From Desulfobacteraceae bacterium (GTDB taxonomy: Bacteria > Desulfobacterota > Desulfobacteria > Desulfobacterales > UBA5852): a DNA stretch of 64,000 nt. The stretch lies in the NCBI GenBank assembly GCA_014237395.1, contig JABZFP010000029.1, forward strand, positions 50,537-114,536, in the 5' to 3' direction. The notes under the pieces were generated by a model that was not told the DNA's origin, did no database searches, and saw only the letters and a list, made by a program, of their open reading frames with translations. Positions 286-57,779 of this stretch are shown here, piece after piece. Every line of letters begins with the position of its first letter. Position 1 is the stretch's first letter. A program made the position numbers and the translations under genes.

Positions 286-421
286 ATCAATACGGTAACG
301 CACCGAGATCGCCGAGGCGCCCGGGGGGCAAGGCGGGCGAAGCGAGAATACCAAGCGTATTGGAGCACCGCGCAACACAGCGGGTCGGGATGCATCGGCG
401 ATCGAATGCCAGCGTATTGAT
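286..421. repeat. structured palindromic repeat, copy R1 (diverged)
   Basis: Outer arms ATCAATACG (286-294) / CGTATTGAT (413-421). Inner arms GATCGCCGA (307-315) / TCGGCGATC (395-403). Central hairpin AATAC-caagc-GTATT (347-361). Family motifs caaggcg..gc.aagcg and gcaccgcgcaaca. Confidence 0.6.
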
Positions 422-23120: not shown

Positions 23121-23226
23121 GACGGCTTCGAAAATTGTTCAAGATCAAGGCGTGCAAGTTGTGAGGAGCGAGGCGTGCTCAATGCACGCCGCAGTGACGA
23201 AGAGCGCCGCGCAACGCAGATATTGG
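23121..23226. repeat. structured palindromic repeat, copy R2 (left arm + core; interrupted by IS)
   Basis: Left arm GACGGCTTCGAAAATTG (23121-23137). Core about 80% identical to R4. Central hairpin GGCGTGC-tcaat-GCACGCC (23172-23190). Core ends at gatattgg (23226). Confidence 0.75.
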
Positions 23227-23239
23227 ACTTTTTCCTATG

Positions 23240-23437
23240 TGGTCCCATGTCAAGGAGAAAGCGTTAAGCAAACAAATGCCCTTTTCCTATCCGCATCTAA
23301 AAATGCATAGTACCGATTCGGTACACAAAAAAGCGAGCCGCCATTTACGAAGCGCCCTCAAGGGGCCAAAAGTCCGCCGCGGCCATCGCCCTGAGACTGT
23401 TTGCTTGTTTCTCCTTAACGACTATTTCCAATCAGAG
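23240..23437 (-). ncRNA. candidate bridge/seek guide RNA of the IS110-family element
   Basis: Long-range pairing of 23252-23260 with 23408-23416 and of 23268-23274 with 23398-23404. Internal hairpin GTACCG-att-CGGTAC (23310-23324). Encloses cttttcctat (23281-23290), which copies the IS end tttttcctat (23229-23238), and atttacgaagc (23343-23353), which is identical to the flank at 24589-24599. Strand is not established. Confidence 0.4.
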
Positions 23438-27743: not shown

Positions 27744-29114
27744 ATGTCGGAAACCAACCTGAACCGAATTCTGGCCCCCCGGGAAAACCTTGCCCGTATT
27801 CTCGATAACCTCAAAGAAGGGGTTATTGCGCATGACCTGAACCGCCGGATCTTCTTCTTCAATCACCAGGCCGAACAGATTACCGGCTTCAGCCGGGAAG
27901 AAATTCTGGGCCGCGACTGCCACGACGCCTTCGGCATCCCTTTTTGCGGCGAGCGCTGCTCCTTCTGCGACCCCGGCGAGTTGGCCCCCGGGAACCTCGA
28001 CAAAAAAGAATACACCCTCAATATCACCACCAAAACCTGTGAAACCCGCCGTATCGATATGAGCGTCACCATGATGCGGGATGCGTCCGGCAACGATGTC
28101 GGCGTCCTGGCCCTGTTTCGTGACATAACGGACGAACTGCGGCTGCAACTGCAATCCGGCAACCTGGATCGCTTTTCCAATATCATCGGGCGGGATGCCA
28201 AGATGCTGCAGGTGTTTCAGCAGATCAGCGACGTCGCCGCCTATGACTACCCGGTTCATATTTTTGGGGAAACCGGCACCGGCAAAGAGTTGGTGGCCAA
28301 TGCCATTCACAATGAAAGCCACCGGGCCGGCACCCCCTTCGTCCCGATCAATTGCGGGGCCCTGCCGGAGGGGTTGATCGAAAGCGAGCTGTTCGGCCAT
28401 GTCAAAGGGGCCTTTACCGGCGCCATCCGCGATAAGAAAGGCCGCTTCGAACTGGCCGACCGCGGCACCATCTTTCTGGACGAAGTGGCGGAGCTGTCCA
28501 AACCCATGCAGGTCAAACTGCTACGTTTTCTACAGGAGGGAACCTTAGAGCGGGTGGGGGGCGAGAAGACGATCTCCGTCAACGTCAAGGTGATCAGCGC
28601 CACCAACAAGGATTTGAAGGAAGAAGTGCGGCACGGCGCGTTTCGGGAGGATCTGTTCTATCGCCTGAGCGTCATCCCGATCTACATCCCGACCCTGAGG
28701 GAACGCCGCACCGATATCCCCCTGCTGGTCAACCATTTCATGCACGAAGCGGCGCTCAAGCACAACCAGGCGTCACTTCGTATGTCAAAAGAGGCCATGT
28801 CCCTGCTGATGGACTACGCCTGGCCCGGCAATGTCCGGGAACTCCAGAATGCCATCCAGTTTGCCCTGGTAAAATCAAGCGGCCGTATGATCACCATCGA
28901 CGATCTGCCCATGGAGATTCGGGCGATGCGCCGCGAAACCCTGCGCCGCGGCCCCACACGCAAGCTGAACCAAGCCACAGTGCGGCGCGCGCTGGCGCAG
29001 ACGGCCGGCAACAAATCCAAAGCGGCCCGCCTGTTGGGTGTAGGCCGCGCCACCCTGTATCGTTTTTTGAATGACCATCCCGACCTGGCCGACCAGGAAC
29101 AAGCCACGCCCTAA
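27744..29114 (+). CDS. sigma-54-dependent transcriptional activator (PAS with Cys4 motif, AAA+, Fis HTH)
   Basis: PAS domain with C59-x8-C-x3-C-x2-C. GETGTGKE Walker A, GAFTGA loop, ELQNAI, and C-terminal AARLLGVGRATLYRFL. Confidence 0.92.
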   Translation: MSETNLNRILAPRENLARILDNLKEGVIAHDLNRRIFFFNHQAEQITGFSREEILGRDCHDAFGIPFCGERCSFCDPGELAPGNLDKKEYTLNITTKTCETRRIDMSVTMMRDASGNDVGVLALFRDITDELRLQLQSGNLDRFSNIIGRDAKMLQVFQQISDVAAYDYPVHIFGETGTGKELVANAIHNESHRAGTPFVPINCGALPEGLIESELFGHVKGAFTGAIRDKKGRFELADRGTIFLDEVAELSKPMQVKLLRFLQEGTLERVGGEKTISVNVKVISATNKDLKEEVRHGAFREDLFYRLSVIPIYIPTLRERRTDIPLLVNHFMHEAALKHNQASLRMSKEAMSLLMDYAWPGNVRELQNAIQFALVKSSGRMITIDDLPMEIRAMRRETLRRGPTRKLNQATVRRALAQTAGNKSKAARLLGVGRATLYRFLNDHPDLADQEQATP

Positions 29115-33554: not shown

Positions 33555-33632
33555 TCTCCCTTTTCCGGCAACAATGTCACCGTGAAAAGTTGATGCCGGG
33601 CCTCAGGCTCTGGTTCAGGCCAAATCCTGAAC

Positions 33633-33773
33633 GAAGTTGATTGCACGCGTTTCATCGTGGTTCAGCGCAAGGCGCGCGGTTGGCTGCAAGCGGAGCATAC
33701 GCGGGTATGTGAGCATTGCGGCCGGCCGTGCAACACCGTGCTGTGCCGCGAGGTGACGCGTGCAATCAACTTC
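33633..33773. repeat. structured palindromic repeat, copy R3
   Basis: Perfect 18-bp arms GAAGTTGATTGCACGCGT (33633-33650) / ACGCGTGCAATCAACTTC (33756-33773). Core has gcaaggcgcgc, hairpin GCATAC-gcgg-GTATGT (33695-33710) and gtgcaacacc. The right arm ends on the first nt of the nqrF stop codon. Confidence 0.75.
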
Positions 33774-34993
33774 TATCCGAAGTCGTCGAACGCAATCATC
33801 TCCCGCTCAACCCCCAATGCATCCAGCATGTTCATGACAGCGCTGATCATCATCGGTGGTCCGCAGAGATAATACTCGATCTCGGTGGGGTCTTCGTGGT
33901 CTTTCAGATAGAGATCGTGGGCCGCCTGGTGAATGAACCCCGTGGGGCCGTCCCAGTTGTCTTCCGGCTGGGGTTCCGAAAGTGCCACGTGGTAGCTGAA
34001 ATTGGAAAAACGCGCCTGCAGGTCCTTGAACTCCTCGTCGTAGAACATCTCCTGGCGCGAGCGGGCGCCGTACCAGAAGGTCACCTTGCGGGACGTTCCC
34101 AGATCCAGCAACTGGTTGAAAATATGGCAGCGCATGGGGGCCATGCCGGCGCCGCCCCCGATGAAACACATCTCCCGGTCGGTGTCCTTCACAAAAAAAT
34201 CGCCATAGGGGCCGCTCAGGACCACCCGGTCACCAGGCTTCAGGTTGAACACATAGGAGGATCCCACGCCGGGCGGCAAATCCATCTGACCCGGGGGCGG
34301 TGTGGCAATCCGGATCGTAAACCGCAGGAGGCCCTTTTCCGAAGGCGGGTTGGCCAGCGAGTAAGCCCGGTTGACCGGAACATCCGTACCCGCTTTGAGG
34401 GACAGGAAGTTAAACTGTTTCCAGGCGGTCCGGTAGGCGTCGGCAACGGAGAACTCGGCAAAATCCGCCTGGTATTCCGGCACATCGATCTGCATGTAAG
34501 CCCCCGCCGTGAAGTCCACCGCTTCACCCTCGTCCAGCTTCAGCACCAGTTCTTTGATGAAGGTGGCCACGTTGTCGTTGGAGACCACGGTGGCATTGAA
34601 TTTCTGAATATTGAAGATCTCTTCCGGAACACGGATCTTTAGATCCTGCTTGACTTTCAGCTGGCAGGCCAGGCGTACGTGATCGAGGCGTTCCTTGCGG
34701 CTGACCAGCGACAATTCCGTCGGGAGAATATCGCCGCCGCCTTCATCCACCTGGCACTTGCAGGTGCCGCAGGTGCCCTTGCCGCCACATGCACAGGGAA
34801 TCAGGATGTCGTTGTCGAGCAGCGAGGCCAGGAGAGTTTTGTTGGTGGGCGTGGATATGGATTTATCGTCATCGTCATTGATGACGATGCGGCGGTCCCC
34901 TTTGATCACCACTCGGGCTTCCACGAGCAGGAGCGTCCCCACCAGGAGCAGGATCACCGATAAAAATACCGCCGTACTGATAAAATAAATCAC
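33773..34993 (-). CDS. nqrF: Na+-translocating NADH:quinone oxidoreductase subunit F
   Basis: 406 aa with an N-terminal TM, the 2Fe-2S ferredoxin motif CACGGKGTCGTCKC and an FAD/NADH-binding FNR-like domain (RAYSLAN, GGGAGMAP). Confidence 0.93.
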   Translation of the reverse strand: MIYFISTAVFLSVILLLVGTLLLVEARVVIKGDRRIVINDDDDKSISTPTNKTLLASLLDNDILIPCACGGKGTCGTCKCQVDEGGGDILPTELSLVSRKERLDHVRLACQLKVKQDLKIRVPEEIFNIQKFNATVVSNDNVATFIKELVLKLDEGEAVDFTAGAYMQIDVPEYQADFAEFSVADAYRTAWKQFNFLSLKAGTDVPVNRAYSLANPPSEKGLLRFTIRIATPPPGQMDLPPGVGSSYVFNLKPGDRVVLSGPYGDFFVKDTDREMCFIGGGAGMAPMRCHIFNQLLDLGTSRKVTFWYGARSRQEMFYDEEFKDLQARFSNFSYHVALSEPQPEDNWDGPTGFIHQAAHDLYLKDHEDPTEIEYYLCGPPMMISAVMNMLDALGVEREMIAFDDFG

Positions 34994-36296: not shown

Positions 36297-37015
36297 ACGA
36301 GTGCGTTCTCCGGAAGCTTGAGCATGCCCTGGTTGCGAAAATGGACGGAAACCGGCTCATAGGTCTGCAGAATGTCTTCCAAGCCCTGGCTCAGGAACTT
36401 GCCGGTCATGGTGGCACCGCTGATGCCGTCGACGTAGTTCGGCTTGAGATCCTGCCGAACGGCATCCTCCACGGCGCCCTTGGCAATTTTGATGGACACG
36501 AAATTCCCTTCGGCATCGATGATCTGCTTCCCCACGAAATTGCGCTGAAACCATTGATTTTCGATTTCGCCGCCCAGACCGGGGGTTTCGGAGTGCTGGT
36601 AAACGGAAAAGCCGGTTATCGTGCTGCCATCCGTATCCAGGGCCAGATAGCCGTAAATGCGACCCCACAGGCCGCGGCTGTCCACCGGGATGATATAGGC
36701 TTTTACTTGCCCGTCGGCCCGGTAGAGGTAGAGCGGCAGGACCTTCTTGGGTGCCGCCTTGGCGGACAGGACCTGCCCTTCGTCGTCGATAGAAATGCAT
36801 TGAATCGAGGATTGATACAGCGCTTTGATCGCGTCGGCCGGATAAGAGCGACCCGATTCCACGGCCCCCACGGCCTGCAGGATATTCTTCTGCCGATCGA
36901 CCAGGGCATTTTCCCGCTGAAACGCCTTGAGGCCGGTGGCCGCCATCGTCAGCAGCAAGCTGCAGACCAGGCAAAGGCCCGTGGCAAACAGGATGGTTTT
37001 AACGCCGTCAGACAT
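36278..37015 (-). CDS. nqrC: Na+-translocating NADH:quinone oxidoreductase subunit C
   Basis: 245 aa with an N-terminal TM anchor and the FMN attachment motif DGISGATMT. Confidence 0.9.
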
Positions 37016-37042
37016 GGTGTCCCCTGTTGATGGAAACGTGCC

Positions 37043-37166
37043 GACGACGTTGTGAACCGTTCAAGGTCAAGGCGTGCAAGCGCCAAGGAGTGAGGCGTAC
37101 ACCAGGTACGCCGCAGCGACGCGAAGCGCCGCACAACGCCGAGATTGGGCGGTTCACAACGTCGTC
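37043..37166. repeat. structured palindromic repeat, copy R4 (inside nqr operon)
   Basis: Perfect 17-bp arms GACGACGTTGTGAACCG (37043-37059) / CGGTTCACAACGTCGTC (37150-37166). Central hairpin GGCGTAC-accag-GTACGCC (37094-37112). Fills the nqrB-nqrC gap. Confidence 0.8.
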
Positions 37167-38349
37167 AGACATTGGACATCCTTCGCCGCATGCGCAGCTG
37201 CATCTCGATGTGATCCAGCAACGGGTTGAAAAGGTTCATGAAAAGAATCGCCAGACCCACCCCCTCGGGAAAAGCGGGGTTGAAGACCCGGATCAGAACG
37301 GTCAGCATGCCGCACATGAACCCGTATATCCATTTGACGTGCTTCATGTGAGTGGCCGAAACCGGATCGGTGGTCATATAAACAATGCCGAACGCCGATC
37401 CCCCCATGATCAGATGATAAAACGGATTGAGGGAAAGAAAAGGGGCGGAATCCGGCCCGGCGATGAGATTCAGGAGCGCACCGGTGCAGAGCACCCCTAA
37501 GACGCCCCCCAGGATAATGCGATAACTGGCAATGCCCAGCAGGATGAGGAACAGGCCGCCCAGGACACACAGGAGGGTCGACGTGCCGCCCACGCTGCCC
37601 GGATAAAGACCGCCAAAAAGCTTGAGGGCGCCGTAGCCCACCGAATGCAGGGTTTCTTCCACGGCCTGGCCGGCCGGGGTGGACGCGGAAACGGACAAGG
37701 GCGTTGCGGCCGTGAAGGTATCCACCACGGTGGTGCGCGCGCCGCTCAGGACGGTCCAGACCTGGTCACCGGAAAGACTGACCGGGTAGGCGAAATAAAG
37801 AAAGGCCCGGCCGGTCAGGGCCGGGTTCAAGAAGTTGCGCCCGGTGCCGCCAAAGACTTCCTTACCGATCACGATGCCGAAGGAAATCCCCAAGGCCACC
37901 TGCCACAGCGGGGTTCCGGGAGGCAGTGTCAATGGGAACAGCATGCAGGAAACGAAAAGCCCCTCGCTGATTTCGTGCTTGCGGACAACGGCAAACAGAA
38001 TTTCCCAGGCGAACCCCACCACGTAAGTTACGATCACCATGGGCAGCACGAGCCAGATACCGCTCCAGATCACCGGCAGCAAGTCGGTGGAGAGCCCCGA
38101 GGCAAGCCGCGACTGGAGGCCCGAATTATAGATGCCGAAACACAGGTGCGGAATCAGCGCCACGATCACCAGTGCCATGAAGCGCTTCACGTCCAGGCTG
38201 TCCCGTACGTGGGGAAGCCCCTCGGACCGCTCGACGGGCCCGAAAAAAACGGTTTCGATGGACTCGTAGAACGCATACAGCTTGTGATAGGGTCCCCCCT
38301 CCTCAAACCGGGGCCTCAGATGATGGAATAGGGTGCGGATCGCTTTCAT
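37165..38349 (-). CDS. nqrB: Na+-translocating NADH:quinone oxidoreductase subunit B
   Basis: 394-aa polytopic protein of the NqrB/RnfD family, with DTFTAATPLS at the flavinylation position. Its stop TGA (37167-37165) overlaps the right arm of repeat R4. Confidence 0.9.
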   Translation of the reverse strand: MKAIRTLFHHLRPRFEEGGPYHKLYAFYESIETVFFGPVERSEGLPHVRDSLDVKRFMALVIVALIPHLCFGIYNSGLQSRLASGLSTDLLPVIWSGIWLVLPMVIVTYVVGFAWEILFAVVRKHEISEGLFVSCMLFPLTLPPGTPLWQVALGISFGIVIGKEVFGGTGRNFLNPALTGRAFLYFAYPVSLSGDQVWTVLSGARTTVVDTFTAATPLSVSASTPAGQAVEETLHSVGYGALKLFGGLYPGSVGGTSTLLCVLGGLFLILLGIASYRIILGGVLGVLCTGALLNLIAGPDSAPFLSLNPFYHLIMGGSAFGIVYMTTDPVSATHMKHVKWIYGFMCGMLTVLIRVFNPAFPEGVGLAILFMNLFNPLLDHIEMQLRMRRRMSNV

Positions 38350-51646: not shown

Positions 51647-53008
51647 ATGCGGATGGACATTAGCAGTTTCTGGGAAACTATCGTCAATACATTGCATGAC
51701 GGACTTCTAGTCGTCGATGCCCGGGGAACCATTCTGAATATGAACCCGGCCGCTGAAAAACTGACCGGTTATTCCGCCGAAGAACTGGTGGGTCGCAACT
51801 GCCGCGTGCTGAACTGCTCGGGGTGCCAGATTTATGGCCGGGGCGCCGGCAAGGAGTGGTGCAGCCTCTATGTCCGCAACCGCATCCGGGCCAAAAAATG
51901 CACCATCACCGACAAAAACGGCCGGGCCCTGTTCGTCATGAAAAATGCCTCGGTGTTGAAAGACGATCACGGTAACGTGGTCGGCGCCATCGAAACCCTG
52001 ACGGACATCTCCGAAATTGTTCGCCAGCAGCAGGAAATCATGTCGCTGCGCCAGACCTGTCGCCTGGATGACGGGTTTCACGGCATTATCGGCCACGCGC
52101 CGTCCATGCAGCGCCTGTTCGAATTGATCGACAATGTCGCCCAGAGCGACGCGCCGGTGCTGATCCACGGCCCCAGCGGCACCGGCAAAGAACTGTCGGC
52201 GCTTGCCGTGCACGAGGCCGGACCGCGTAAAACCAAACCGTTTATCAAAGTCAACTGCGCCGCCCTCAACGAAAATCTGCTGGAAAGTGAACTCTTCGGC
52301 CATGTCAAGGGCGCCTATACCGGTGCCGACCGGGCGCGCATCGGGCGATTCGAAGCGGCCCACGGGGGTACCATTTTTCTGGACGAAATCGGTGATATTC
52401 CTTTGGCCACCCAGGTCAAACTCCTGCGGGTGCTGGAAGAAAAGGAGATCGAACGGGTGGGCGATCACCACCCCATCGCCGTCGATGTTCGCATCATATC
52501 CGCCACCAACAAAAACCTGGAAAAAAGCATCGCCGAAGGCCTGTTTCGCGAAGATCTCTATTTCCGGATCAATGTCTTCCCCCTGACCATGCCCGCCCTG
52601 CAGGACCGCATGGAAGATATCCCGTTGCTGGTGCAGGGATTCATCACCCAGAACAACCAGCGCAGCGGAAAAACGATCGAAGGTCTGTCCCCCGAAGCCA
52701 TGGACGCCCTGCTAAGCTATACCTGGCCTGGCAATGTCCGCGAACTGCGCAACACAATCGAGTATGCCTTCGTCCTGTGCCCCGGCGGTTGGATCGGTCC
52801 GGTGCATTTGCCGCAACGTATTGTTCGAGGAACCCCGGCAACCGCCTCCCGCGATATCCCCGCCGGACCGGAGCGGGAGGCCCTGCTGAATGCCCTGCGA
52901 CTGGCCAATGGCAACCAGTCCGAAGCCGCCCGGCATTTAGGCGTCAGCCGGGTCACGGTCTGGAAGCGGATCAAAAAGCACGGTATTGATCTGCACCGTG
53001 ATCTTTAA
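51647..53008 (+). CDS. sigma-54-dependent transcriptional activator (PAS with Cys4 motif, AAA+, Fis HTH)
   Basis: PAS domain with C52-x4-C-x2-C-x11-[21 protein letters not shown], and [16 protein letters not shown]. Confidence 0.92.
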
Positions 53009-56740: not shown

Positions 56741-56802
56741 TGTGCATCCAGAAATGTCCAATTTTCCCGATATCGGCGCTACGCGTAAAAAGCCCTGTAG
56801 CA

Positions 56803-56962
56803 GACGGTTTCGTAAAAGGTTCGAGATACGGCTTGCGAATCCCGTGGAAAGAGGCGTACTTTTCGTACGCCGCAGTGACGAGGGATTCGTGTAACGCGGA
56901 TATTTATCCCTTTTAAGGGACGGTGTCCGCCTTTGGCGGATCGGGCGTTTTACGAAACCGTC
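56803..56962. repeat. structured palindromic repeat, copy R5 (extended)
   Basis: Perfect 15-bp arms GACGGTTTCGTAAAA (56803-56817) / TTTTACGAAACCGTC (56948-56962). Central hairpin GGCGTAC-ttttc-GTACGCC (56853-56871). Carries an extra ~45-nt module with two small hairpins before the right arm. Confidence 0.8.
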
Positions 56963-57779
56963 ATCCCTTGCGCCCGACATGGACGACGGCAATCCCGTTG
57001 GTCAGCCGCCAGTAGTGGACGTCTCTGAAACCGATGCGGGTCAGGATCGCGGACATCTCATCCGGCAGGTGGAAAAGACGGATGGTTTCCGGCAGGCAGG
57101 AATAGGACTCGGCCGATCCCGCGAGCAACTGGCCCAGGAAAGGCATCGCATAGAAAGAGTACATATCATACAGCCAGCGAAAGACCGGGTTGACGGGTCT
57201 TGAAAATTCCAGACACATGAACGTCCCGCCGGGTTTCAGCACCCGGTGCATTTCCCGAAAGCCCTGCTCCATGTGGGTGACGTTGCGAATGCCGAAGCCC
57301 ACCATGGCGGCATCGAAGCTATGTTCGGGATAGGGAATGCGTTCGGCATCGCCCTGGACGAATTGAATCCGCTCGCCGTAAGGCGTCTCCCTGACCTTGG
57401 GCTGGCCCGCCTGCAGCATGGCCCGATTGATGTCGTAGACCACACACCGTCCGTCGGCGCCGGTGCGCCGGGACGCCATGATGGACAGATCGGCCGTGCC
57501 GCCGCAGACGTCCAGCACCCGGTCGCCGGGTGACAGCCCCATCATGCGGATGGCCGCACGCTTCCAGGCGTACTGGATCCCGAAACTGAGAAGGGTGTTC
57601 ATGAGGTCGTATTTTGGCGCCACGCGGTTGAAGTGCCGGCGCACCCAGTCCACTTTTTCAGCGGTCGGCATCCGGCGATACCCGAAGTGGGCCACATCCG
57701 TACGATCGATATGCTGATCCAGTTGCGCGCTGCGGTCGGCCGCGTCAAACCACCGGGGGGTCTTCCATTCCATAACCAC
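56961..57779 (-). CDS. ubiE: demethylmenaquinone / ubiquinone C[17 protein letters not shown] (UbiE/MenG)
   Basis: FNRVAPKYDLMNTLLSFGIQYAWKR...VLDVCGGTADLS. The stop TGA (56963-56961) overlaps the R5 right arm. Confidence 0.9.
   Translation of the reverse strand: MVMEWKTPRWFDAADRSAQLDQHIDRTDVAHFGYRRMPTAEKVDWVRRHFNRVAPKYDLMNTLLSFGIQYAWKRAAIRMMGLSPGDRVLDVCGGTADLSIMASRRTGADGRCVVYDINRAMLQAGQPKVRETPYGERIQFVQGDAERIPYPEHSFDAAMVGFGIRNVTHMEQGFREMHRVLKPGGTFMCLEFSRPVNPVFRWLYDMYSFYAMPFLGQLLAGSAESYSCLPETIRLFHLPDEMSAILTRIGFRDVHYWRLTNGIAVVHVGRKG

Follow-up and report, generated by a model that had tools for sequence, protein, structure and literature searches.

We analysed a 64,000-nt stretch of DNA from a Desulfobacteraceae bacterium (GenBank assembly GCA_014237395.1, contig JABZFP010000029.1, positions 50,537 to 114,536; hereafter the window), in which a sequence-only reading had noticed a palindromic repeat whose right arm runs onto the stop codons of three different genes. 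Five copies of this element were located in the window by a covariance model, all of them on the plus strand (Table 1). Three of the copies, termed R3, R4 and R5, lie at the 3' ends of minus-strand open reading frames (ORFs) which, according to their Pfam matches, encode an NqrF-like protein (Fer2/FAD_binding_6/NAD_binding_1), an NqrB-like protein (NQR2_RnfD_RnfE) and UbiE (Ubie_methyltran), respectively. The NqrC and UbiE proteins of the window show 68-73% identity to proteins of Desulfosarcina metagenome-assembled genomes (MAGs). Direct reading of the sequence confirms that the right arms of R3, R4 and R5 overlap the stop codons of nqrF, nqrB and ubiE by 1-2 nt, and that all three copies have the same orientation toward the gene they abut. 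Contact with a stop codon in three of the five window copies corresponds to p ~3e-5 when compared to the measured background.

The contacts differ in their make-up. The R3 arm does share 1 nt with the nqrF stop; however, the span that is typical of the family is shorter than the R3 palindrome, and the stop is reached, as it happens, by a lineage-specific extension, which makes up the outer 10 bp of each arm. In the right arm of R4, the outermost GTC lies within a 9-nt direct repeat (GTCAGACAT) that flanks the insert, and the A of the TCA is part of a 6-bp target duplication, AGACAT. The ubiE stop is composite as well, its T being contributed by the flank and its GA by the terminus of the element. 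R3 belongs to a diverged subfamily and folds with -99 kcal/mol on the plus strand, compared to -74 kcal/mol on the minus strand. Since all four relatives examined have an orthologous copy behind the nqrF stop, with outer arms that differ among them, R3 must be old. The remaining two copies do not touch a stop codon. R1, whose right arm has decayed, is found between two plus-strand ORFs, the upstream one of which is a 4HBT thioesterase gene. The weak fifth copy is found between two minus-strand ORFs, 78 nt from the nearest minus-strand stop (483-485), and its R3-like tip hairpin GAATAC..GTATT suggests that the genome may contain a second ('ATAC') subfamily.

Table 1. Coordinates of the element copies, their parts and the abutted stop codons in the window.
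Feature	Position	Strand	Remarks
Weak fifth copy	305-405	+	covariance model 18.3 bits, E = 0.037
R1	23121-23244	+	covariance model 93.6 bits
R3 third-arm copy, A1-like	33584..33600	+	GAAAAGTTGATGCC, resembles left arm GAAGTTGATTGC; also found by A1 search
R3 hairpin of the diverged subfamily	33633..33773	+	tip GCATAC..GTATGT
R3 inverted-repeat arms	33633-33666 and 33740-33773	+	inverted repeat I5
R3, family-typical span	33643-33763	+	covariance model 36.5 bits
nqrF-like TAG stop	33775-33773	-	closes ORF 33773..34993; 1 nt shared with R3 arm
R4 target duplication AGACAT, distal copy	37010..37015		holds nqrC start codon (CAT = ATG on minus strand, 37015-37013)
R4 complete unit, 151 nt	37016..37166	+	diverged A1 and spacer 37016-37042, 124-nt hairpin 37043-37166
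R4 hairpin	37043-37166	+	covariance model 117.7 bits
R4 arms	37043-37059 and 37150-37166	+	direct reading
nqrB TGA stop	37167-37165	-	closes ORF 37165..38349; 2 nt shared with R4 arm
R4 target duplication AGACAT, proximal copy	37167..37172		first base plus terminal TC of element = TCA = nqrB TGA 37167-37165
R5 whole	56776..56962	+	A1 56776-56794 (GCGCTACGCGTAAAAAGCC), spacer, hairpin 56803-56962
R5 hairpin	56803-56962	+	covariance model 59.5 bits
ubiE TGA stop	56963-56961	-	closes ORF 56961..57779; 2 nt shared with R5 arm, which ends at 56962

All copies are built around a common core, GAGGCGTRC-N5-GYACGCCGCAG, and their outer arms vary from copy to copy yet remain complementary. An exact scan for this core, using one genome per species, recovered at least 120 loci, which belong to Desulfobacterota, NC10/Methylomirabilota, Rokubacteria, Acidobacteriota, Gemmatimonadota, Myxococcota and Binatia. 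The unit measures ~155-165 nt (151 nt in R4) and consists of an arm termed A1 (~19 nt), followed after a spacer of 8-20 nt by a rod-like hairpin of 124 nt. A1, which reads GAYGRNNTCGTAAAAAG in the Desulfobacterota type, is a third copy of the arm (TGATGRACTCGTAAAAAGTC), located 8-20 nt upstream of the hairpin and oriented like the left arm. The outer stem of the hairpin is formed by a second arm copy (A2), which pairs with the inverted right terminal arm (A'). Terminal inverted repeats are present, with A1 on the left and the inverted copy A' on the right, and an autonomous partner would be expected to be bounded by TGAYGRNNTCGTAAAAAG (Desulfobacterota type) or RCAGGCTGCTGAAAAAGG (NC10 type). 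The element contains no conserved ORF, and MAG contigs carry several copies each, the 64-kb window with its five copies included. Stem finding by perfect pairing only missed interrupted arms, and the covariance model was used instead. The earlier description of arms and unit had left out the covariation of the arms, the third arm A1 and the fact that the stop is partly built by the element (T from the target, GA from the element).

Pairing was tested on a curated alignment (A4) of 44 sequences with 47 proposed pairs. In this alignment 89.6% of the cells are paired, compared to 72.5% after shuffling and 34-41% when the partners are slid, and double changes account for 344 cells, compared to 104 in the control. 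The arms thus covary, which is why they differ between copies. Moreover, G.U/U.G pairs outnumber A.C/C.A pairs by 102 to 29 on the plus strand (p = 1e-10), indicating that structure is constrained on the strand that lies antisense to the genes abutted. The plus strand also folds 2-25 kcal/mol more stably in all four window copies that were folded, and the internal loops CAAGGC and CAACGC, as well as the hairpin tip, are conserved across phyla. Covariation, the wobble-pair excess, the more stable plus-strand folds and the conserved loops and tip would all be expected of a structured non-coding RNA gene, or of a cis-antisense RNA that is made from the plus strand toward the 3' end of the convergent gene and for which the stop codon would mark the start of the antisense target. 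We nevertheless consider such an RNA very unlikely. Searches of Rfam 15 gave no match at gathering thresholds over the window, nor at E values up to 10 over R4. By inspection no conserved promoter was seen, and A1 is without an acceptable -10 hexamer. In the case of R4 the RNA would be antisense to an essential operon. Finally, the target duplications, empty sites, tandem or nested copies and many copies per genome described below are the behaviour of a mobile element.

Individual copies show further details of structure. NC10-type copies (L012:3047-3171 and L112:5115-5239) have TCA at the same stem position in both arms, which results in a conserved C.C mismatch (14 'other' cells, columns 12/123) and in a reverse-strand TGA in both arms. 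The 3' half of R5 carries a 36-nt extra hairpin (~56905-56940, TATCC...TCCGCCTTTGGCGGA), a shorter form of which (ATCCGCCTCAGGCGGAT) is found at the same position in copies L031 and L041 of other MAGs.

The position of stop codons was determined for 106 full-length copies, comprising 102 from core-scan loci among the matches listed and four from the window; some copies found by the covariance model lack the exact core used in the scan. Each copy was paired with its longest convergent ORF (minimum length 80 codons), whose stop was placed relative to the end of the right arm. In 70 of the 106 copies such an ORF stops in or at the right arm, and in 54 it does so within -3 to +4 nt of the arm end. 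In 25 of these the stop is TC|A at the arm end, in 17, which are mostly of the NC10 type, it is the triplet directly past the arm (CTA, TTA or TCA), and in 12 it occupies one of the remaining positions from -3 to +4. A further 16 copies have the stop inside the arm, at -9, -11 or -12. About one third of the 106 copies are away from stops. A random 8-nt window holds the end of such an ORF in ~1.5% of cases, compared to which 54 of 106 gives p ~2e-68. When the Desulfobacterota-type ORFs that extend to the boundary and have at least 100 codons are sorted by frame, the junction TGA ends 23 of them, the internal TAA ends 8, and a single one stops in the third frame (chi-square p = 7e-6). The abutting ORFs that were checked are all genuine, unrelated housekeeping genes, and most of their Pfam matches nearly reach the last residue. 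They include genes for an aspartokinase, a UvrD-like helicase, a pyridoxal phosphate (PLP) enzyme, a periplasmic binding protein, a tRNA-guanine transglycosylase, an E1 dehydrogenase, an Mrp/NUBPL ATPase, an ABC ATPase and an HD-domain protein, as well as pyrF.

The right end of the Desulfobacterota type is nearly always followed by an A and therefore yields TCA with or without a gene end, which might make the stop contact a matter of chance or an artefact of TCA-containing palindromes. The census refutes this explanation, and we assign it a practically negligible probability: long ORFs with Pfam domains truly end at the arm, they do so in far more copies than the measured background provides, and the CTA, TTA and TCA triplets of the NC10 type lie outside the palindrome. 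Over 106 copies from many genomes, both an enrichment at stop codons and an orientation bias are seen; the lack of either would have refuted the sequence-only reading.

We then took the 36 copies in which A1 is recognisable and compared the 6-mers on their two sides, before A1 and after the right arm. A perfect 6-bp duplication flanks 12 of the 36 copies, compared to 0.5% perfect matches in mismatched-pair controls (p = 3e-19), and in four more 5 of the 6 positions match. The duplications are AT-rich and have the consensus A-NNNN-T. No flanking duplication is found at the hairpin's own left (A2) boundary, which shows that the unit includes A1. Moreover, empty sites were recovered for two of the window copies. 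The nqrB/nqrC junction is empty in L124 (NqrC 93% identity) and in L125 and L126 (84%), where the two genes overlap by 8 nt (...CCAATGTCTGACGG...). It is filled in the window and in L127 (NqrC 83%), where an insert of 151 nt has ATGTCT on both sides. The ubiE end is empty in L129 (UbiE 91% identity) and reads ...AAA GCA TAG, and in the window it reads ...AAG GGA TGA followed by the element, so that the stop is at the same codon as the TAG of L129. Finally, a single Smithella MAG contains L054 and L075, two copies with only 2 differences in 124 nt, which indicates recent spread.

Our preferred explanation, which we hold to be probable though well short of certain, is a mobile element of the foldback type, non-autonomous and MITE-like (MITE, a miniature transposable element with inverted repeats), whose insertion geometry is seamless at stop codons. 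The family appears to be previously undescribed; literature searches with the core sequence gave only unrelated primer matches to its 9-mer, and searches on an association of MITEs with stop codons found nothing. The first suggestion of the sequence-only reading had been an insertion that is site-specific for ORF ends, and it is borne out by the target duplications, by the empty sites at nqrB/nqrC and ubiE, by the stop position throughout the family and by the one preferred orientation. For its two further suggestions, a 3'-UTR hairpin under selection and ribosome-dependent events at termination, there is evidence on either side: stop contacts are commoner in older copies, and orientation is biased even though a stop is rebuilt at both termini, but the structurally selected strand is antisense to the gene, which speaks against a simple mRNA hairpin. 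The element would be moved by a transposase acting in trans. Its concentration at stops would stem in part from a target preference for pyrimidine-pyrimidine before A and for AT-rich hexamers, and for the rest from purifying selection and a longer retention of seamless insertions.

How stop and start codons survive the insertion can be read from the junctions. Read in the sense of the gene, the T of the native stop is the last base of the duplication and is followed by the element's initial GA, giving the junction T|GA. The terminal GA of the element thus rebuilds a TGA, and the host protein remains unchanged. The native stop is still found next to the far duplication copy in young insertions (CT|A in L037, TT|A in L001 and TC|A in L068). 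The gene-sense sequence of the duplication begins with ATG in R4, L116 and L117, and the target in R4 and L116 is an overlapping stop/start junction (ATGNNTGA). Because the ATG at such a junction is duplicated, the upstream gene keeps its stop and the downstream gene keeps its start, as is the case for nqrB and nqrC. In a differing frame, translation continues for ~4 extra codons and then ends at an internal TAA, which lies 11 nt inside the arm. The element would thus be a near-harmless transposon, whose ends rebuild the stop and whose duplication spares an overlapping start, and which is tolerated even inside the essential nqr operon.

Copies can also lie next to each other: tandem or adjacent copies are found in L103 (5123-5251 and 5254-5379), L007 (1-101 and 114-237), L093, L086 and L069. 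The pair in L069 consists of an older copy and, immediately next to its right end, a young one with a perfect duplication. The possibility that arms are templated from the target, or that insertion takes place beside arm-like sequence, was prompted by R4, where the 5' end of nqrC (GACGGGGTAAAAACC) is arm-like, and by the 3' end of nqrF. It does not hold in general, since the flanks of 16 young copies gave 4.9, compared to 4.2 in controls, and only L069 and R4 stand out. At the nqrF end of L124 (8240-8270) and L127 (8256-8290), the last codons and the stop (GACGACTTCGGC-TAA-AAAGG) resemble the arm (GACGGCTTCG-TAAAAAG); this likeness may be a coincidence, a preferred target or an arm that was absorbed into the gene. 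Solo arms were mapped in the at least 120 core loci, and the ORFs between or beside them are housekeeping genes. The plasmids searched contained no match to the element, and the sole match to the core in viral contigs is L133:6225-6249, on a 22-kb IMG/VR contig.

Orientation was analysed in 91 copies, using ORFs of at least 150 codons that end within 75 nt of either end of the element. An ORF ends near the right end in 65 of the 91 copies, near the left end in 23 and on both sides in 14, compared to a background of 8%. The hairpin end, rather than the A1 end, faces the gene in 51 of the 60 one-sided cases, which would also be expected if the element were a functional 3'-end module of genes. 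In that case the hairpin, starting from the stop, would serve as a bidirectional terminator, an exonuclease block or a modulator of termination or coupling, and mobility would only spread it, selection on gene expression being what maintains its position and orientation. Liang, Rudd and Deutscher reportedly found in 2015 that REP hairpins of E. coli affect translation when they are within 15 nt of a stop codon, and the SPRITE repeats of S. pneumoniae resemble terminators (PMC10969869). Several features of the present family point the same way: copies of greater age, whose duplications have decayed, show a stronger concentration on stops than young copies, the place of R3 behind the nqrF stop has persisted in four lineages, and the reverse complement of the A1/spacer segment of R4 provides nqrC with a new Shine-Dalgarno-like sequence, AGGGGA. 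In addition, ~54% of the copies have an A5 tract, a GC-rich stem base and a T5 tract, on both strands, the run of at least five T following the inner stem of a stem-loop of ~90 nt. However, the strand that is favoured by wobble pairs and has the lower folding energy is antisense to the gene. The lengths of the T runs are equal on both strands, and a simple terminator scan flags neither R3 nor R4, both of which are without a T tract; an orientation-specific terminator was rejected for these reasons, whereas a terminator role as such may exist. R4 and its counterpart in L127 are inside an operon, where termination would be harmful, yet L127 retains the T5 tract. Taking into account also the third of the copies that are not at stops, we regard a 3'-end module as unlikely, though deserving of serious weight.

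The selection for structure on one strand, together with the fact that the whole unit forms one long hairpin like a REP doublet, could alternatively indicate a single-stranded-DNA element, REPIN-like or other, whose mobility depends on recognition of the plus-strand hairpin by an HUH/Y1 enzyme (RAYT or IS200/IS605-like). Subfamilies of the element track taxa, with one type in Desulfobacterota and another in NC10, and subfamilies of REPIN-RAYT pairs likewise track taxonomic groups. Such an element seems to us very unlikely indeed. The 6-bp target duplications are clear, and IS200/IS605 elements and REPINs are not known to make any; a REP head of the GTAG type is missing; orientation is mixed in 6 of 14 multi-copy contigs; and the structured strand in the window is C-rich, the opposite of what targeting to the lagging template predicts. 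The mixed contigs, in which each copy is convergent with its own gene, and the C-rich structured strand also led us to reject replication as the factor that sets orientation. The GC skew of the plus strand is negative in every 8-kb window over the whole 64-kb stretch, and the stretch probably lies on one replichore with the minus strand leading.

Several observations weigh against the preferred MITE-like element. First, the lineages with a filled nqrB/nqrC site, the window and L127, are not each other's closest relatives, which requires either precise loss or recurrent insertion at this site. Second, NC10-type copies seemingly use another duplication: their stop (TAG, TAA or TGA) is just outside the palindrome and their left end is preceded by TAG or TAA, flanks which would fit a duplication of the TA or YTAR type. 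Third, no autonomous partner or transposase was found among neighbouring ORFs, plasmids and viral contigs, an ISfinder-type library being outside the search. Fourth, the one-sided cases (51 right versus 9 left, p = 3e-8) amount to a bias of ~5:1, which protein integrity cannot explain because both termini of the element would rebuild T|GA. Fifth, only ~4 of 16 young copies are exactly on a stop, compared to ~4 in 10 Desulfobacterota-type copies overall, which indicates that retention adds to targeting in producing the enrichment. Finally, a core shared across phyla, covarying stems and a 102:29 excess of G.U pairs on one strand are atypical of MITEs, whose similarity is usually the trace of recent bursts.

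The orientation bias and the structural conservation of the plus strand suggest an extra constraint, acting at the insertion step or on a single-stranded form. Integration might then be guided by the machinery of gene expression rather than by DNA sequence, with the element, or a single-stranded intermediate of its plus strand, inserting where the ribosome leaves the message. Past the stop, transcription would be uncoupled, and the non-template strand or an R-loop would be exposed. If true, the element would be a transposon steered by the termination of translation or transcription, which would explain at once the use of all three stop codons in unrelated genes, the fixed orientation, the strand-specific structure and the cross-phylum core; we consider it rather improbable. 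A milder form of the same idea would be a mobile 3'-end module that has become domesticated.

Compared to known systems, the MITE-like element comes close to the Correia/NEMIS elements of Neisseria and the ERIC/IRU elements of Enterobacteria. These are likewise small, non-coding and multicopy, have terminal inverted repeats and a target duplication, fold as a whole into one long hairpin and are found at gene borders; they are co-transcribed with genes, and the effects of ERIC on mRNA depend on its orientation. The element of the window differs from them in its unrelated sequence, in a 6-bp A-NNNN-T duplication where theirs is TA, and in the third arm A1. Moreover, its core covaries in at least seven phyla, whereas theirs are confined to one genus or family, and it sits exactly on stop codons with the ~5:1 orientation bias. 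Among bacterial MITEs, whose general features have been described (PMC10969869, PMC3184786), Chunjie of Geobacter uraniireducens, a former deltaproteobacterium, is the closest one described from that group; it was found inserted in an operon without breaking it and has a very stable fold (PMC3184786, PMC10969869). Chunjie measures 178-235 bp, is A+T-rich and has 21-bp terminal repeats and 9-bp direct repeats (PMC3184786). Our element, with ~160 nt, a GC-rich core and a 6-bp duplication, is set apart from Chunjie by the latter's description, not by a comparison of sequences.

REP/BIME and REPIN-RAYT elements are also extragenic palindromes downstream of genes. REPs, however, are only 20-40 nt long, begin with a GTAG head that is conserved, lack a target duplication and depend on an associated RAYT gene, whereas our element has 124-160 nt and a 6-bp duplication, and its alignments show no GTAG head. 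The comparison with REP elements that the sequence-only reading had drawn therefore fails on sequence, size and the presence of target duplications. The MIRU repeats of mycobacteria, described by Supply et al. in 1997, reportedly lie in operons with their ends overlapping the flanking stop and start codons, so that translation stays coupled. This resembles the situation of R4 between nqrB and nqrC, but MIRUs are tandem 40-100-bp units with small ORFs, without hairpins and without terminal inverted repeats. Tn7 at attTn7 (after glmS) and class C group II introns (after terminators) insert in a fixed orientation just past a gene and leave it unharmed. Their targets are one specific sequence or a terminator hairpin, and the machinery is encoded by the elements themselves, whereas the genes abutted by our element are unrelated and have only the stop codon in common. 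Finally, some insertion sequences (ISs) have targets with stop-like triplets (YTAR for IS5, TNA for IS1031, TA for IS630), and IS3 ends in TG...CA. The NC10-type flanks CTAG, CTAA and TTAG agree with TA or YTAR targets. The ends of the Desulfobacterota type can be read as TGAYG...CRTCA with a 4-bp duplication, which resembles the TG...CA of IS3. No full-length IS matching these likenesses was found, and both are leads only.

If confirmed, the element would represent a repeat family that is widespread but has gone unrecognised in anaerobes of environmental importance and in phyla of the soil, namely sulfate reducers, syntrophs, NC10 methanotrophs and Acidobacteriota. The element also has consequences for assembly and annotation. 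L121, L122 and L123, Logan short-read contigs that are identical to window positions 37090-38349, all end inside R4 at the tip of the hairpin, which indicates that the palindrome breaks short-read assemblies at gene ends. At R4, the duplicated ATG causes the gene caller to report a bogus ORF, and use of the internal TAA changes annotated C-termini. The orientation bias and the strand-specific structure go beyond known MITE behaviour and bear on target choice coupled to gene ends; they raise, as a second question, whether hairpins are co-opted as 3'-end signals.

Other classes of structured element were considered and rejected. A SECIS element does not fit on inspection, as the abutted genes do not encode selenoproteins and R3 uses TAG. 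Integron attC sites are set apart by their R boxes (RYYYAAC...GTTRRRY), which are missing here, and by the reverse arrangement of conservation, since in our element the centre is conserved and the ends are variable. A retron was rejected because no reverse transcriptase gene is present among the neighbouring ORFs that were checked. Finally, a GxxGxGK-like motif (CGGCACCGGCAAAGA) is contained in a direct repeat of 75% that window positions 28274-28484 and 52177-52387 form; the two probably belong to paralogous genes for AAA+ regulators and are not connected with the element.

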